64,000 nt of DNA from Armatimonadota bacterium (lineage in GTDB: Bacteria; Armatimonadota; SYMT01): contig JAWLHY010000006.1 of assembly GCA_041690135.1 (NCBI GenBank), positions 96,001 to 160,000 of the forward strand. Reading direction: 5' to 3'. The notes below the pieces were generated by a model. It did not search any database and had not been told where the DNA came from. It was given only the letters and a program-made list of their open reading frames with translations. The position numbers and the translations under genes were made by a program. Positions 17,888 to 28,329 of the stretch are shown here, piece by piece; the first letter of the stretch is position 1; each line of letters opens with the position of its first letter.

Positions 17888-18998
17888 ATGTTGATCGACC
17901 TGACCACAGAAGTTACAGCTCTTTCTGAAAAAGTGGAAGAGCTGGGGAGGCATCTTTGACATCCCAGGCAAAGATGCTCGTATTGCTGCCCTCCGCGACC
18001 AGAGCCTGAAGCCGGATTTCTGGGAGGACCCCGAGGAAGCTCAGAAGGCCATGCAGGAACTGGCGCGCCTCGAGGCCGCCGCCAACCCCTGGCATGAATT
18101 GAAGACCCGCCTGCAGGACGCACGCGAGCTGCTCGAGCTGGCCGAAGCCGAGGAGGACCCGGAGCTCTATGCCCAGGAAGTCCGGAGTGAGCTGGACCAA
18201 CTCCAGGAGATCTATCAGCAGCTCGAGATGGCGGATATCCTCTCGGGCAAGCACGACGCAGCCGACGCCATTATGGAGATCAACTCCGGTGCCGGAGGCA
18301 CTGAGTCTTGCGACTGGGTAACACTCCTCCTGCGCATGTATCTCCGCTGGGCCGAACGCCACGGGATCAAGGCGGAGATCATCGATGAAGTAACGGGCGA
18401 TGTCGCGGGGCTCAAGAGCGTCACCATCCATTTCCGAGGCGAAAACGCCTACGGGCTGCTGAAGAGCGAGCACGGGGTGCACCGCCTGGTGCGGATTTCG
18501 CCATTCGACGCGAACAAGCGGCGCCACACCTCTTTCGCCAGCGTCGATGTCGTGCCGGAGTTGGAAGAAGAGGAAGAGGTCGAGATCAACCCGAAAGAGC
18601 TGCGGATCGACACTTATCTCTCGGGCGGCGCGGGCGGTCAGAACGTGCAGAAGAACGAGACGGCCGTGCGGATTACGCATCTGCCCACCGGTATCGTGGT
18701 GTCCTGCCAGAACGAACGGTCGCAGTTGAAGAACCGTGAGTTCGCCATGAAGGTGCTGAAATCGCGGCTTGCGGAGATCCAGCGGAAGGAACAGGAGGCC
18801 CAGGTGGCCGCCCTCCGGGGCGAGCAGCGGGCCATCGAATGGGGAAGCCAGATCCGCTCCTACGTCTTCCAGCCATACACGCTCGTGAAGGACAATCGGA
18901 GCAACTACGAAACCGGCAACATCATTGCAGTGATGGACGGGGAAATCGACCCGCTGATCTATGCCTACCTCAGCTCCACGCGCAGCCATGCCTCCTGA
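17888..18998 (+). CDS. prfB: Peptide chain release factor 2, translated through a programmed +1 frameshift
   Basis: MLIDLTTEV...GRHL then CTT-TGA-C at 17954-17960 with an internal SD (GGGAGG); the +1 frame contains SPF and GGQ motifs. Confidence 0.97.
17944..17960 (+). promoter_or_regulatory. prfB +1 frameshift site
   Basis: ggggagg-cat-CTTTGAC, the canonical RF2 autoregulatory cassette. Confidence 0.95.
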
Positions 18999-23946: not shown

Positions 23947-25182
23947 CTAAAGGGCCAGCCGAGTCCGAATTCGCTCCACGGCTTCCACCGTTGCCTCGCG
24001 ATTGCCGAAGGCCGTCAGACGCAGGTAACCCTCCCCACTGGGACCGAAGCCCGCCCCCGGCGTGCCGACCACGTTGGCTTCGCTCAGGATCTTATCGAAG
24101 AACTCCCAGGAGCCAAGGCCCACCGGAGTCTTCGCCCAGATGTAGGGAGCGTTGCGCCCGCCGTACACCGTTAGCCCGGCCCCCTCGAGCCCTTCGCGGA
24201 TGATCCGCGCGTTCTCCATGTAGTAGTCCACCAACTCGTGAACCTGCTGCCGGCCCTCCTCCGAGTAGACGGCTGCCGCGCCGCGCTGGATGATGTACGG
24301 CACGCCGTTGAACTTGGTGCTCTGCCGCCGCAGCCACAGCGCGTTCAGATCTACGGCGTTGCCCGCGCTGTCACGTCCCTTGCACTCCTTCGGAACGATG
24401 GTGTAGGCACACCGGGTGCCGGTAAAGCCGGCGGTCTTCGAGAAGCTGCGAAACTCGATGGCGACTTCCTTCGCTCCCTCGACTTCGTAAATGGTGTGCG
24501 GGATCTCCGGATCGCGGATGTAGGCTTCGTACGCCGCATCGTAGAGGATGATCGCCTCGTTCTCTCGGGCGTAGTCCACCCACGCCTTCAGTGCTTCGCG
24601 GGTGATAACCGCCCCCGTGGGATTGTTCGGGTAGCAAAGATAGATCAGGTCCACCTTCCGGTCCGGCAAGGCGGGCTGGAAGCCGTTCTCCGCGGTGCAG
24701 GGCAGGTATACCAGGCGGTCGTAGCGGCCGTCATCCGTCGGGCTACCGGCCCTGCCGGCCATCACGTTACTGTCCACGTACACCGGATAGACGGGATCGG
24801 TAAGGGCCACGACGCACTCCGCCCCGAAGATCTCCTGGATGTTCGCGGTGTCGCTCTTGGCGCCATCGCTCACGAAGATCTCGTTGGTCCCGAGGGTCAC
24901 CCCCCGGGCCGCGTAGTCGTGCTCCGCGATATTCTGGCTAAGGAAGTCGTATCCCGGCTCGGGACCGTAACCGCGAAAAGTCTCGGCATGCGCCATTTCG
25001 TCCACGGCCGCGTGCATCGCCTCGATCACGGCTGGAGGGAGGGGCCGGGTAACGTCGCCGATCCCCAGGCGGATGAGCGCCGCGCCCGGGTTGGCCTCCT
25101 GGAATGCCCGGATCCGACGGGCGATCTCCACAAAAAGGTAGCTGCTCTTCAGCTTCAGGTAATTCTCGTTAACGATGGCCAA
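23947..25182 (-). CDS. dapL: LL-diaminopimelate aminotransferase
   Basis: [59 protein letters not shown]; TTG start. Confidence 0.96.
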
Positions 25183-25286
25183 CGTGTCTCTCCTCGACAG
25201 GCAAGCAAAACCTGCCTTAGCTTATCACGGGAAAAATCTCGAAAATCGATGCAACGGTCTGTTCCGTCGCTGCGTCTAGGCTTATG

Positions 25287-25391
25287 AAAACCTGATATCC
25301 CCGGCGGCCCCGTAAGCCGTCCGATGGGGACGGGCCCAGTTTAGCCCTCGCGCTCTTGCATCCTTTGGGATGCGGAGTGCGGGGGCTTTTT
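25287..25391 (+). promoter_or_regulatory. Structured 5' leader with an intrinsic terminator upstream of the SigB/F-type sigma gene (candidate attenuator)
   Basis: Bulged hairpin 25298-25330, ACGGGCCCAG, terminator stem 25343-25387 followed by a T-run, 35 bp before the start codon. Confidence 0.65.
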
Positions 25392-25426
25392 GCTTTCTGA
25401 AGTAAGTCACTCGAAGGAGCCTCCCA

Positions 25427-26182
25427 ATGACCCGCGAAGAAGATACCCGCCTCGCCAACCAGCTCTGGGCTGACTACGCTCGCACACACGATCCTCGCAC
25501 TCGCGAAGCCATCGTGCACCAGTTCGAACGGCTCGCCTTCTCCATCGCGAACCGGTTCGCCAAGCGGGGCGTGCAGAACGAGGATCTCTTCCAGGTCGCG
25601 ATGATGGGGTTGGTCAAAGCAGTCGACCGCTTCGACCCCACCACCAACCACCGCTTCAGCACCTTCGCCACCCCGACCATCCTGGGTGAGATCAAACGCT
25701 ACTTCCGGGACCACTCCTGGAACGTCCACGTGCCGCGCGGGATGCAGGAACTGGCACAGCAGGTGAACCGCACCAGCCGCGAGCTCACGGAAAAGCTCGG
25801 CCGCACGCCGACCGCCCAGGAGATCGCAAACCGGCTGGAGCTTCCTGAAGACCGGGTGCTGCAGGCACTCTCGTTGGAGGATATCAACCGGCCGCTTTCC
25901 CTGGACGGCGAGATCGAGACGGGCGACAGCGACCGGCCGAGCGTGCTGGAGCAGAGCCTCGGCAGCGAGGACGGTGCCCTGGCGGTGACGGAGGACAAGG
26001 TCAGTATCCACCAGGCGCTGCGCAACCTGAGCGATCCGCTGCGCGAAGTGATCCAGCTCCGTTATCTGAAGGAGATGAGCCAGCGCGACGTGGCCCGCCG
26101 GATGGGCCTGTCCCAGATGCAGGTCAGCCGTCTGGAGCGCCGCGCCCTCACCGAACTGCGCCAGCAGTTTGCCGTACATTAA
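25427..26182 (+). CDS. SigB/SigF/SigG-family RNA polymerase sigma factor
   Basis: EDLFQVAMMGLVKAVDRFDP, FSTFATPTILGEIKRYFRDH, VHVPR, SQMQVSRLERRAL; AAGGAG RBS. Confidence 0.95.
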   Translation: MTREEDTRLANQLWADYARTHDPRTREAIVHQFERLAFSIANRFAKRGVQNEDLFQVAMMGLVKAVDRFDPTTNHRFSTFATPTILGEIKRYFRDHSWNVHVPRGMQELAQQVNRTSRELTEKLGRTPTAQEIANRLELPEDRVLQALSLEDINRPLSLDGEIETGDSDRPSVLEQSLGSEDGALAVTEDKVSIHQALRNLSDPLREVIQLRYLKEMSQRDVARRMGLSQMQVSRLERRALTELRQQFAVH

Positions 26183-26211
26183 GAGAGGCTCGCCGCGTCC
26201 GTGGAAATTCA

Positions 26212-26667
26212 GTGATGATTAGCAGTACACCACTCCCCACGATGGCCACTTCACCGTTAACCGTCATTCGCATCCCTGGTCCGCACGGGCCGATCCTGCG
26301 GTGCCAGGGAAGCCTCACGGTCTCTACGACCGAGGTCTTGCGGAGGGACCTCGGTCTCCTGTCTTCGTCCGGCCACGGGGGTGTAGTCATCAACCTCAAT
26401 GGCATCCGGCAGATCGATCAGGACGGAGTGCTCGCGCTGGTCGATCTCGCCGAGCCGGGCCGGAGCCGCCTGGTGCTCGCAGTGGCCACCGAACCGACGG
26501 CAGGGTATCTTCATCTCACGGGTGTGGACCGGGTCCTGCCGATCTACCGCACCGAGGCGGAAGCCGTGGCCGCGCTGGCGCGAGAAGATGACACTCCGGA
26601 AGCCGGTCGGGCCGAAGCGCGCGAGCATGCGCTGGCCGTGCTGAAGCACTCAACGCAATTGCAGTAA
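26212..26667 (+). CDS. STAS-domain protein (anti-sigma factor antagonist-like)
   Basis: LRCQGSL, VVINLNGIRQIDQDGV, LHLTGVDRVLPIY...EAVAAL; start uncertain. Confidence 0.8.
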   Translation: MMISSTPLPTMATSPLTVIRIPGPHGPILRCQGSLTVSTTEVLRRDLGLLSSSGHGGVVINLNGIRQIDQDGVLALVDLAEPGRSRLVLAVATEPTAGYLHLTGVDRVLPIYRTEAEAVAALAREDDTPEAGRAEAREHALAVLKHSTQLQ

Positions 26668-26765
26668 CCTCGGTGCGGCAAACCGGCCGCATCGCAACGT
26701 CCTGGATAGTGGAGCAGTACCATCGCAGCTCGAGAGCAATAGAGCGCAAACTCTGTTGCCCGATT

Positions 26766-26793
26766 GGGCCCCTGGATCACAGGGGCCCTTTTT
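26766..26793 (+). terminator. Intrinsic terminator after the sigma-STAS pair
   Basis: GGGCCCCTG-gatca-CAGGGGCCC-TTTTT. Confidence 0.8.
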
Positions 26794-26915
26794 CATGGAG
26801 TGGCCGAGAGCCCGGCGAGATGGACATAATATCCTCGAAAAACACAGGTCAACTGCACGCCCAGCCCCACCGTCGGGCGTCGGTTCAGGCCGAATCTGCA
26901 ATCTCGAGGATACCG

Positions 26916-27527
26916 ATGCCAGAGGGTCATCCCTCCCCCGCTTCCGCCGAACCCCTCCGCATTCTTGTTTGTGAGGACGAGGGCCTCACGGCGCTGCGCC
27001 TGCAGAAAACCCTTTCGAGCATGGGCTACCTAGTCGTCGGCGAGGCGAAAGACGGCGAGGAAGCCGTCCGACTGGCGCGGGCCCTCGGCCCCGACATCAT
27101 CATGATGGATGTGCGCATGCCGAAGCTCGATGGCATCGAGGCGACCCGTCGCATCATGGAGCTGGCGCCCACCGCTATCGTGATGCTGACTGCCTACAGC
27201 GACCAGGAGTTGGTCCAGAAAGCGCTGGACGCCGGGGCTTCCGGATACCTGGTGAAGCCGGTGAAGGACGAACAACTCAAGCCCGCCATCACCGTGGCCC
27301 GTACTTCGTTCGCGCAGTTCCAGGAATTGGGCTCGGAGATCGCCGGGTTGAAGGACACCCTGGAGGCACGAAAGCTGGTGGAGCGGGCAAAGGGAATCCT
27401 GATGCAGCGTCGGAAATACACGGAAGAAGAAGCCTACAAGCAGATGCAGAAGGTCAGCCGGGATCGGCGTCAGTCCCTGAAGGAGACCGCGCAACAAATT
27501 ATTGCCGCCGCGGAACTACTCGGTTGA
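26916..27527 (+). CDS. ANTAR-domain response regulator (AmiR/NasT/PdtaR-like)
   Basis: Receiver domain ILVCEDE...MMDVRMPKLDG...LTAY...YLVKP; ANTAR domain RKLVERAKGILM...EEEAYKQMQKVSRD. Confidence 0.93.
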   Translation: MPEGHPSPASAEPLRILVCEDEGLTALRLQKTLSSMGYLVVGEAKDGEEAVRLARALGPDIIMMDVRMPKLDGIEATRRIMELAPTAIVMLTAYSDQELVQKALDAGASGYLVKPVKDEQLKPAITVARTSFAQFQELGSEIAGLKDTLEARKLVERAKGILMQRRKYTEEEAYKQMQKVSRDRRQSLKETAQQIIAAAELLG

Positions 27528-27533
27528 CGAGCG

Positions 27534-27542
27534 TGCTATAAT
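27534..27542 (+). promoter_or_regulatory. Extended -10 promoter (TGcTATAAT) for the ECF sigma leader
   Basis: Perfect TGn-TATAAT immediately after the ANTAR gene stop. Confidence 0.6.
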
Positions 27543-27564
27543 AGGTCCAGAGATTACCGATTTG

Positions 27565-27690
27565 AACTGAATACCGCTCGCCGCGACCCTGTCCGTCGCG
27601 ATTGGCGAGCACTGGCCAAGAGCGCCGGGCTATGCCTGCTGTCTGACTTTATGTCGGATACGGGGATGGTCGCGGCGTTTTTTCGTTTTT
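27565..27690 (+). promoter_or_regulatory. Structured 5' leader with an intrinsic terminator upstream of the ECF sigma gene (candidate attenuator)
   Basis: Bulged hairpin 27576-27610, ACTGGCCAAG, long terminator stem 27623-27677 followed by TTTTTTCGTTTTT. Confidence 0.65.
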
Positions 27691-27729
27691 CTGGTGCAAA
27701 CAGGGACGGTTGAAGAAAGGGTGACTGCC

Positions 27730-28329
27730 ATGTCGGTCGAACGAGGGGGACAGCCGGTAGTGTTGGGGCAGGCGCGTAACGAAGCAGAGGTGGTACGCCT
27801 TTGCCAGACGGGCGACGCGGGTGCCTGGTCCGAGCTGCTTGCGGCCGTGCGGCCCCTGGTCCAGACGATCGCCCGCCGGGACTTCCACCTGGGTCTCGAC
27901 GACGTCGAAGACATCCACCAGCTCGTTTGCGTGAAGCTGTACGAAAACATTGGCCAGCTTCGCGAACCCGCCGCCTTCCGCCAGTGGCTACGGTGCCTCA
28001 CCCGTCGTGTAATTGTCGACTTCCTGCGCCAACGGAAGGACGCTTCCTCTCTCGATTACCTGGAAGAGTCGTTCGGACTGGAGCCGACGGAACAGACTGC
28101 GGACCTGCGTTGGGTCGAGCAGGCCACCCTGCGGGTGGAGGTCCAGCGAGCGCTGATGAGCCTTCCCGAAAAGTATCGCCGCCCTCTGCTCCTCCATTTG
28201 CTCCTGGGAGAACCGCAGGAGGAAGTCAGCCGGATGCTGGGGCGGCCTCGTTCCACAGTCGCCAGCCAGATCCACCGCGGCCTGGCCCGCCTCCGCCGGA
28301 CCCTTTCCGCCGCCGACTACGCTTCCTAA
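27730..28329 (+). CDS. ECF-type sigma-70 factor
   Basis: GDAGAWSEL, DVEDIHQ, LREPAAFRQWL, ALMSLPEKYR, RSTVASQIHRGLARLR. Confidence 0.9.
   Translation: MSVERGGQPVVLGQARNEAEVVRLCQTGDAGAWSELLAAVRPLVQTIARRDFHLGLDDVEDIHQLVCVKLYENIGQLREPAAFRQWLRCLTRRVIVDFLRQRKDASSLDYLEESFGLEPTEQTADLRWVEQATLRVEVQRALMSLPEKYRRPLLLHLLLGEPQEEVSRMLGRPRSTVASQIHRGLARLRRTLSAADYAS

Follow-up and report, generated by a model that had tools for sequence, protein, structure and literature searches.

A candidate variant ANTAR dual-hairpin antiterminator upstream of two sigma-factor genes in an Armatimonadota bacterium

The locus described here lies in a 64-kb stretch of DNA from a little-studied soil bacterium of the Armatimonadota (the window, i.e. 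the whole stretch that was analysed), and all of its features are on the forward (+) strand. The first gene (25427–26182) encodes a sigma factor of the SigB/SigF/SigG family, whose product passes the cut-off of the corresponding NCBIfam model (TIGR02980, 261.9 bits versus 234.35) and matches Pfam sigma-70 regions 2, 3 and 4. It is followed by a STAS-domain gene (26212–26667; Pfam STAS, 36.7 bits), possibly an anti-sigma antagonist, which scores 23.1 bits against the NCBIfam anti-sigma antagonist model and thus remains under the cut-off of 53.45. A terminator 3′ of the STAS gene (26766–26798) consists of a 9-bp stem (26766–26788) and a subsequent T run. The gene at 26916–27527 encodes a PdtaR/EutV-like REC-ANTAR response regulator (Pfam Response_reg 101.3 bits, cut-off 30.2; ANTAR 72.9 bits, cut-off 27.3), which is the proposed trans-acting factor. 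The last gene (27730–28329) encodes an ECF-type sigma factor (TIGR02937, 77.6 bits versus a cut-off of 42.9), with matches to Pfam regions 2 and 4 and none to region 3; the ATG at 27730 was used as start, and in-frame alternatives are the GTG codons at 27694 and 27721. The Pfam and NCBIfam results bear out the gene calls (sigma, STAS, ANTAR, ECF) of an earlier note made from the sequence alone. A SigB/F/G-family sigma gene followed by a STAS gene recalls SigB/SigF partner switching. On the other hand, a domain search of the 64-kb window found no anti-sigma kinase gene adjoining the SigB/F/G-type gene, and the control proposed below would act on transcription elongation, upstream of any protein-level switch.

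Each of the two sigma genes is preceded by a leader of a common plan, in which a short spacer separates a bulged hairpin (P1) from a small one (P2), and a long intrinsic terminator follows whose 5′ strand contains the 3′ strand of P2. In leader 1, P1 (25298–25330) has a 5-bp lower stem, a 4-nt 3′ bulge, a 6-bp upper stem and a 7-nt loop with C at position 1 (C1) and G at position 4 (G4), closed by a C-G pair. The proposed antiterminator P2 (25332–25347) has a 4-bp stem, a C-G closing pair and an 8-nt C1/G4 loop; the terminator stem starts with the 4 nt of its 3′ strand. The terminator (25344–25396) is a 43-nt imperfect hairpin (25344–25386) of about -35 kcal/mol with a T-rich tail from 25387, and the ATG of the sigma gene lies at 25427. 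In leader 2, P1 (27576–27610) has a 7-bp lower stem, a 4-nt bulge, a 5-bp upper stem and a 7-nt loop, again with C1, G4 and a C-G closing pair. P2 (27612–27628) has a 5-bp stem and a 7-nt loop with C1 and G4; its fourth pair, G-C in the other copies of the class, is U-G here. The terminator (about 27618–27686) is a long imperfect hairpin reaching to 27682, of about -33 kcal/mol, with a T run at 27678–27683. RNAfold yields -64.4 kcal/mol for leader 1 (z -3.54) and -73.0 kcal/mol for leader 2 (z -3.15), and 0 of 200 shuffles were as stable in either case. The simple consensus terminator scan missed both of these long, imperfect terminators and listed only the post-STAS one.

Two leaders with one architecture and different stems, as reported in the earlier note, are hence present in the window, and they recur in orthologous leaders. 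The CTGA(T/A) start and the GAT-containing bulge, which that note regarded as part of the shared design, occur in both leaders of the window and are not conserved in relatives. Its GGC-GCC antiterminator geometry holds up well: the GGC is the 5′ strand of the conserved hairpin P2, the stem of which covaries and the 3′ strand of which lies in the terminator in all 25 leaders collected (see below). The loop of P2 is of the same kind as that of P1 (C1, G4, C-G closing pair), a feature the note had overlooked. It is by virtue of this likeness that the pair resembles an ANTAR dual-hairpin target.

The class was sampled with 8 species genomes; class-level and order-level searches gave the same 8. 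A model-based search finds two real copies in each of 7 of these genomes, one at the SigB/F/G-type sigma gene and one at the ECF sigma gene. Orthologous leaders of the class keep the architecture with changed stem sequences. On an unfitted MAFFT alignment, RNAalifold predicts P1, with compensatory change in 5 of 6 pairs. Among 14 leaders located by gene orthology, 93.2% of alignment cells are paired, versus 80.4% after shuffling (0/500 shuffles as high) and 27–48% in slid controls, and 7 of 11 pairs change on both sides; P2 is misaligned in two rows of this alignment. A wider set of 25 leaders, 11 of them added from other families, shows 95.9% pairing versus 76.8% (0/500), with change in 8 of 12 pairs, and in 3 of 5 pairs of P2. 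The stems of P1 and P2 both covary. Conservation is confined to loops, closing pairs and spacing, while spacer sequence and lower stems vary freely.

These data also bear on another explanation, namely that the resemblance of the two leaders is due to chance or to simple paralogy without function. A loose two-hairpin descriptor is indeed common in this G+C-rich genome (1053 matches versus 919 in a reversed-sequence control). However, requiring a terminator leaves 19 matches, among which only the two leaders are both intergenic and conserved; moreover, pairing is kept while sequence changes in orthologous leaders, and 7 genomes have exactly two real copies each. We regard this explanation as highly improbable. 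Three extra intergenic descriptor matches had no convincing gene or conservation and were discarded, and the third model match from the genome of the window falls within an ORF for a permease.

C1, G4 and C-G closing pairs are found in both hairpins of all 14 orthology-located leaders. C1 and G4 are likewise found in both loops of 25/25 leaders of the wider set, partly by construction, as the detector or model required them in the 11 added leaders. Loop 1 has 7 nt in 24/25 leaders, and loop 2 has 7 nt in 18/25 and 8 nt in 7/25 (model R1 keeps a one-column error for 8-nt loops). All 25 leaders carry two tandem hairpins with a short linker, the distance between closing pairs being 15–23 nt (18 nt in 13/25). 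In every one of their minimum-energy folds, the 3′ strand of P2 is paired within the downstream hairpin. A crude test, in which the f13 copies are undercounted, shows a T-rich tail directly after this hairpin in 15/25. The earlier note had called the loops non-canonical, and they are: 7–8 nt long, with C1 instead of A1 and G4 kept. According to the loop tables of the 14 and the 25 leaders, no redrawing of any leader yields a canonical hexaloop with A1/G4. A pseudoknot between loop C-C-Y and spacer G-G-G was considered and rejected, since those G residues form the covarying P2 stem and the ECF leader of the window would mismatch.

No Rfam 15 covariance model reaches its gathering score across the 64-kb window, and at E values up to 10 there are five weak matches, the best of which (22.4 bits versus a threshold of 50) spans the terminator only. 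This agrees with the earlier note, which had asked for such a check and had recognized no known riboswitch class in the leaders. In the literature covered, we found no ANTAR-controlled sigma gene; the supplementary target lists of the ANTAR papers lie outside this coverage and may bear on the point. Most likely, the mechanism is of a known kind (ANTAR antitermination), with unusual RNA loops and target genes.

ANTAR regulators are widespread, and most of the targets known so far are genes for nitrogen or ethanolamine metabolism. To our knowledge, the known ANTAR RNA code is a single motif (a hexaloop with A1/G4), and almost nothing is known on regulation in the phylum. The RNA targets described in two papers are the eut leaders bound by EutV (Enterococcus faecalis), nasF for NasR and amiE for AmiR (PMC3369931; PMC8934654). 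In these targets, two hairpins carry G4 and conserved closing pairs, their spacing is constrained, and P2 stands at the 5′ base of the terminator (PMC3369931; PMC8934654). The leaders presented here share with these targets the two small tandem hairpins with G4 in both, the closing pairs, the constrained spacing, and a second hairpin that has bases in common with the 5′ side of the terminator; as in those systems, a REC-ANTAR protein is encoded beside a target. In contrast, loops are 7–8 nt long rather than 6, C1 replaces A1, P1 is often long and bulged, and the genes behind the leaders encode sigma factors rather than nitrogen or ethanolamine functions. The absence of the hexaloop and of A1, both of which define the published ANTAR targets, counts against the reading we favour. 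Mutation of A1 impaired EutV control (PMC3369931).

The best solved relatives of the regulator are Rv1626 (E 4.8e-46) and EutV (E 3.4e-37), and its residue D65 aligns with the phospho-acceptor Asp of EutV. Seven orthologs share 61–66% identity. With reference to the RNA-contact residues of EutV given in PMC8934654, the alignment shows that all G4-contacting residues (Arg142, Lys149, Glu160, Tyr164) are kept. Lys143 and Arg175 are also kept and Lys147 appears as Arg, while Arg168 is changed to Gln, Met172 to Arg, Asn173 to Asp and Arg177 to Ser. Met172 is the loop-size "plug" of EutV, and Arg, which sets the regulator apart from EutV here, occupies this position in 31 of the 31 phylum homologs fetched. 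As a mark of motif-bearing genomes this Arg was discarded, as it also occurs in 21 of 88 other relatives.

In 3 of 6 relatives, a HisKA_2 kinase gene immediately precedes the regulator gene, and an ortholog of this kinase (67% identity) is encoded elsewhere in the window's genome. PdtaS is a kinase of the HisKA_2 type. The system thus resembles PdtaS/PdtaR in its partner kinase where adjacent, in Rv1626 as the best solved relative of the regulator, and in dual stem-loop RNA targets. On the other hand, Rv1626/PdtaR is reported to act on translation and not on termination (10.1101/660928). Actinobacterial ANTAR RNAs are described as having A1/G4 hexaloops and as overlapping ORF start sites to repress translation (10.1101/660928). 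The hairpins of the present leaders differ from these mycobacterial and actinobacterial RNAs by lying upstream of a terminator, 36–47 nt or more before the start codon.

Based on the conserved and covarying structures, the overlap of P2 with the terminator and the gene linkage observed here, we hypothesize that the leaders represent a variant ANTAR dual-hairpin antiterminator that gates a two-sigma cascade, a reading to which we assign a probability of roughly 0.7. Each leader would act as an ANTAR-type attenuator of transcription that depends on a protein. By default, the nascent RNA would fold P1 and then the long terminator, and transcription would stop before the sigma gene. Upon induction, the neighbouring REC-ANTAR regulator would be phosphorylated, probably by a HisKA_2 kinase, and would bind P1 and P2 at their look-alike loops (C1, G4, C-G closing pair). 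P2 would thereby be held closed and the first bases of the terminator 5′ strand withheld, such that RNA polymerase may read into the gene.

The earlier note had left the choice between the neighbouring ANTAR protein and an unknown ligand as the gating factor. The comparative evidence points to the ANTAR protein as the likely factor: in 7/7 class genomes with RNA copies, the ECF leader comes directly after its gene. The eighth genome (G006) lacks the ANTAR ortholog (best match 41%), the ECF ortholog and both RNAs. A real attenuator read by something else, be it a small-molecule ligand (riboswitch), another RNA-binding protein or a second ANTAR paralog, could be considered in view of the deviation of the loops from the published ANTAR consensus and of the lack of an Rfam match, which leaves no known class excluded by name. 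In G052, two copies are located on a contig for which our searches gave no ANTAR match, and the window's genome encodes a second REC-ANTAR paralog with its own HisKA_2 kinase (C6:203415-205649), which could bind the leaders. However, this paralog is kept in G006, where there is no RNA copy, and conservation confined to loops, closing pairs and spacing fits repeated protein contact and offers no pocket-like core. An unknown ligand is therefore the less likely choice, and we consider a reader other than the neighbouring ANTAR protein unlikely overall.

It may also be argued that there is no switch at all. The terminators would then be constitutive, marking the end of the ANTAR transcript or serving as insulators, P1 would be a hairpin for stabilising or processing the 5′ end, and P2 would be too weak to matter; alternatively, the short terminated leader RNA might titrate the regulator as a decoy, as in the EutX-type sequestration described in PMC8934654. 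In the 25 leaders, P2 comprises 4–6 pairs against terminators of -14 to -45 kcal/mol, and in several relatives the ECF leader begins 20–30 nt past the ANTAR stop codon, where its terminator could simply end that transcript. Yet the SigB-type leader has the same design in the window's genome and in G003 without a co-directional upstream gene, and where a strong terminator separates a conserved promoter from its sole gene, there must be a means of passing it. Covariation of P2 and a loop kept like that of P1 would be unexpected for a meaningless terminator flank. Either version thus appears quite improbable.

Returning to the ANTAR antiterminator reading, the wiring of the two leaders deserves attention. 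A two-block motif (TGCRNC, 16–17 nt, GYGTCY; 25250–25277) lies about 20 nt upstream of P1 in leader 1 and aligns in 7/7 orthologous SigB-type leaders, with T-G...C and G-T-C invariant. From its sequence, which we take to be similar to ECF promoters, the motif is read as a putative ECF-type promoter of the SigB/F/G-type gene. The ECF gene itself lies directly behind the regulator gene. The likely circuit would hence run from kinase to ANTAR protein to ECF sigma factor to SigB-type sigma factor, and, as the ANTAR switch would also gate the second step, it would constitute a feed-forward AND gate. We put forward only tentatively, and with some doubt, the more specific proposal that a distinct PdtaR-like ANTAR subfamily (Arg for Met172) has the C1/G4 heptaloop pair as its recognition code, and that a two-component system employs this code to drive such a feed-forward cascade from ECF to SigB-type sigma factors in the phylum. 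On this proposal, one phosphorylated antiterminator would license the ECF gene first, and then the SigB-type general-stress sigma gene behind the ECF-read promoter.

If true, ANTAR regulation would reach past nitrogen and ethanolamine metabolism to global transcription reprogramming: with a switch before two sigma genes, a two-component signal may be turned, during transcription elongation, into a genome-wide change in promoter use. A conserved second loop code with a matching protein subfamily would be a natural pair for studying loop choice by ANTAR proteins, for which the change of Met172 to Arg is the obvious place to look. In synthetic antitermination circuits, the C1/G4 loop code could also serve as an orthogonal part.

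Beyond the class, three other families of the phylum contain 11 further copies, of which 9 precede ECF-type genes, 1 a PBP-like gene and 1 a gene without assigned family; for most of them, an ANTAR gene lies within 2.5 kb. Of 401 genomes of the phylum, 275 encode ANTAR homologs, whereas RNA model R3 finds copies in only 16 of 151, which implies that the link between RNA and ANTAR protein is not general or that the model is narrow. Of the 21 places indicated by R3, 6 are false and lie inside ORFs, and model R2 was overfitted to ECF-type leaders. Four R1 matches outside the class, all inside ORFs, were not counted, nor were the partial look-alikes in G013 and G037 (one hairpin fits, the other does not) and a solitary P1-like hairpin in G328. 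Model R1 gave no copy, among the matches listed, on 80 metagenome loci with distant ANTAR genes (45–60% identity in the C-terminal domain), and the metagenome matches listed include no ANTAR ortholog. A scan of genome contigs returned mostly unrelated receiver domains among the matches listed. Chthonomonadales MAGs are the nearest relatives that bear a name. Among the public sequencing runs listed for this DNA there was one DNA run, with a small share of words, and no RNA run.

An extended -10-like element just 3′ of the ANTAR stop codon (27534–27542), which a two-hexamer promoter scan did not pick up, may be an internal promoter for the ECF leader; similar elements are present in 2 relatives.

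Judged by sequence comparison, the leaders preceding the SigB-type and the ECF-type sigma factor genes (leader 1 and leader 2, respectively) are a real, conserved and structured attenuator common to both genes, as the earlier note had proposed, and most likely a target of ANTAR-type antitermination with a new loop code. The SigB/SigF/SigG-family sigma factor gene (25427–26182; TIGR02980 score 261.9 against a cut-off of 234.35) is followed by genes for a STAS protein (26212–26667), a REC-ANTAR response regulator (26916–27527) and the ECF-type sigma factor (27730–28329, with alternative in-frame starts at 27694 and 27721), all four running co-directionally on the plus strand. The aminotransferase gene upstream of leader 1 (23947–25182) lies on the minus strand, and hence no co-directional gene precedes this leader. 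The STAS protein scores 23.1 with the anti-sigma-antagonist model, below the cut-off of 53.45, and no RsbW/SpoIIAB-type anti-sigma kinase gene adjoins its gene; the neighbourhood of the sigma and ANTAR genes in the window also holds no histidine kinase gene. Further out lie housekeeping genes, for example those for SecA, RF2, Dus and CoaX. The first residue of the RF2-like ORF (18051–18998) aligns to position 28 of the PCRF profile and leaves the earlier profile positions unmatched, so that its N-terminal part is probably encoded upstream in another frame, presumably through the +1 frameshift that is usual in prfB.

Folding recovers both leader structures as they had been described from the sequence. 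Each begins with a bulged hairpin (P1; 25298–25330 in leader 1, 27576–27610 in leader 2) and ends in a terminator, which in leader 1 is a hairpin of 43 nt followed by a T run (25344–25386) and in leader 2 spans about 27618–27682, all on the plus strand. In both leaders the stretch that separates P1 from the terminator forms a small second hairpin (P2; 25332–25347 and 27612–27628), which adds to the earlier description, and the 3′ strand of P2 is at the same time the start of the terminator 5′ strand. The P2 loop resembles the P1 loop: each is closed by a C-G pair and has C as its first nucleotide (C1) and G as its fourth (G4). Both leaders are more stable than each of 200 dinucleotide shuffles (z −3.54 for leader 1 and −3.15 for leader 2). 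A simple terminator scan lists only the terminator after the STAS gene and neither of the two long, imperfect leader terminators.

The class of the window genome comprises 8 species genomes. Orthologs of the SigB-type gene (48–73% identity) and of the ECF gene (38–48%) are present in six relatives, and P1, P2 and the terminator are kept in all 12 orthologous leaders of these relatives despite differences in stem sequence. A covariance model built on these 12 leaders and the two of the window (R1), the kind of search of relatives that the earlier note had put forward, matches in 7 of the 8 class genomes, with exactly two real copies in each. A third R1 match in the genome of the window falls within an ORF for an ABC permease and was dismissed. 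The remaining genome (G006, 94% complete) displays neither RNA in the R1 search and no ECF ortholog; its best ANTAR match is a 41% paralog that other class genomes also carry. In all seven genomes with the RNAs the REC-ANTAR gene ends 20–110 nt 5′ of the P1 of the ECF leader. In four of the seven, the SigB-type gene is on the same contig as the ANTAR-ECF pair, less than 9 kb away; in the other three the two are on separate contigs of fragmented assemblies.

Covariation of the stems, proposed earlier as a check, is present by RNAalifold and by shuffle comparisons. RNAalifold predicts the upper P1 stem (6 bp) on a plain MAFFT alignment, and five of its pairs carry compensatory change. A model-fitted alignment of 14 leaders, including two rows misaligned in P2, has 93.2% of its cells paired against 80.4% after shuffling and two-sided changes in 7 of 11 pairs; sliding the partner by 1–3 columns leaves 27–48% paired. 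A wider alignment of 24 rows (21 leaders, a doubtful row from genome G013, and one unrelated hairpin twice), which leaves out four SigB-type leaders that scored below threshold, has 95.9% paired against 76.8% and two-sided changes in 8 of 12 pairs. None of 500 shuffles reaches the observed value in either alignment, counts that are not probabilities because the alignments are structure-fitted and the sequences related. P2 contributes three of its five pairs in the wider alignment because its stem sequence differs in f13, a family outside the class; at one P2 pair, 9 rows have A-U and another 9 have G-C.

All 14 leaders that were found through gene orthology have C1 and G4 in each loop and a C-G pair closing it. 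The P1 loop always has 7 nt, and the P2 loop has 7 nt in eight leaders and 8 nt in six. Across the full set of 25 leaders the closing pairs lie 15–23 nt apart (18 nt in 13 of them), and in all 25 minimum-energy folds the P2 3′ strand is paired as part of the downstream hairpin. Among the leaders compared, conservation does not extend to the sequence of the spacer, the bulge or the lower stem of P1; nor is the CTGA start, named earlier as a common feature, conserved in the leaders of relatives.

ANTAR targets have been described as two small hairpins whose hexaloops bear A1 and G4 and whose closing pairs are conserved, joined by a linker of 5–12 nt in which length matters; the second of them sits at the terminator's 5′ base (PMC3369931). 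The sigma leaders are like these targets in architecture and logic, but the hexaloop and A1, two defining features, were looked for and are absent; we therefore class the leaders as a variant and not as a member. The earlier supposition that the motif may be undescribed agrees with the lack of any match in Rfam 15. In the EutV-RNA structure (EutV being a structurally solved ANTAR antiterminator), the sole base-specific contact is with G4, which is stacked against Tyr164 and bonded by Arg142, Lys149 and Glu160; Met172 acts as a plug in the loop and has been proposed to determine loop size (PMC8934654). The REC-ANTAR protein of the window keeps four of four G4-contact residues in alignment to EutV and has Arg at the Met172 position, as do 31 of 31 phylum homologs fetched, which would fit retention of G4 alongside an altered loop; Arg at this position is no discriminator, since 21 of 88 other relatives have it too. 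In the literature records surveyed for ANTAR together with sigma or ECF terms, and in a 2025 review, no ANTAR-controlled sigma gene was found.

Of 401 phylum genomes, 275 have REC-ANTAR homologs at an E-value of up to 1e-40. Reading the DNA beside the best of them, together with a search using a broader covariance model (R3), yields 11 further leaders outside the class: seven in f13 (G018, two copies in G031, G375, G192, G400, G080), three in family f27 (G162, two copies in G052) and one in family f7 (G040). An ECF-type gene is recognised downstream of 9 of the 11, all but the G080 copy and the second G052 copy. The latter (locus L315, 1501–1551, minus strand) is a dual hairpin whose loops match those of the other copies, set before a PBP/transglycosylase-like gene at 1.6 kb from the divergent ECF leader; it has a downstream hairpin, lacks the T run, and would be a third kind of target. 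On 151 sampled genomes R3 finds 21 places in 16 genomes, of which 15 were judged real and 6, lying inside ORFs, were discounted. The model searches scored 37–150 of several thousand first-look candidates per genome, and some copies may therefore be missed.

With these comparisons the overall reading of the sigma leaders is well supported. Upstream of the SigB-type leaders lies a two-block motif with a fixed spacing of 16–17 nt (25250–25277 in the window), in which T-G...C and G-T-C do not vary among the 7 such leaders compared. We take this motif to resemble ECF promoters, which suggests that the ECF sigma factor may transcribe the SigB-type gene. The ECF leader starts 20–30 nt past the ANTAR stop codon in several relatives, implying co-transcription there; the window has an extended −10-like element at 27534–27542. 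Directly upstream of the regulator gene there is a HisKA_2 kinase gene in three relatives (G004, G007, G001); in G005 the gene at this place encodes a SpoIIE/PP2C phosphatase, and in G002 a GGDEF protein. The kinase ortholog of the window's genome (67% identity) lies on another contig. This genome also has a second REC-ANTAR paralog outside the window (C6:203415–205649, 42% identity), with a HisKA_2-type kinase match of its own about 1 kb away.

Other structured elements were seen near ANTAR genes. At four f7 loci (L266, L269, L270 and L271 in G198, G363, G373 and G087) a conserved promoter-like element and a hairpin lie downstream of the ANTAR genes, with no obvious terminator; the gene that follows them is S1/P1-nuclease-like in G198 and G087 and a different one in G363 and G373. 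One of these hairpins has a C1/G4 heptaloop. Locus L272 of G328 (882–930, reverse complement) displays a lone P1-like hairpin with a C1/G4 heptaloop and without P2, some 700 nt upstream of an ANTAR gene. In metagenome loci L173, L165/L167 and L166, a strong promoter-like element and a common structured stretch, unlike the two-hairpin motif of the sigma leaders, follow distant REC-ANTAR genes by about 0–200 nt and may represent another conserved RNA.
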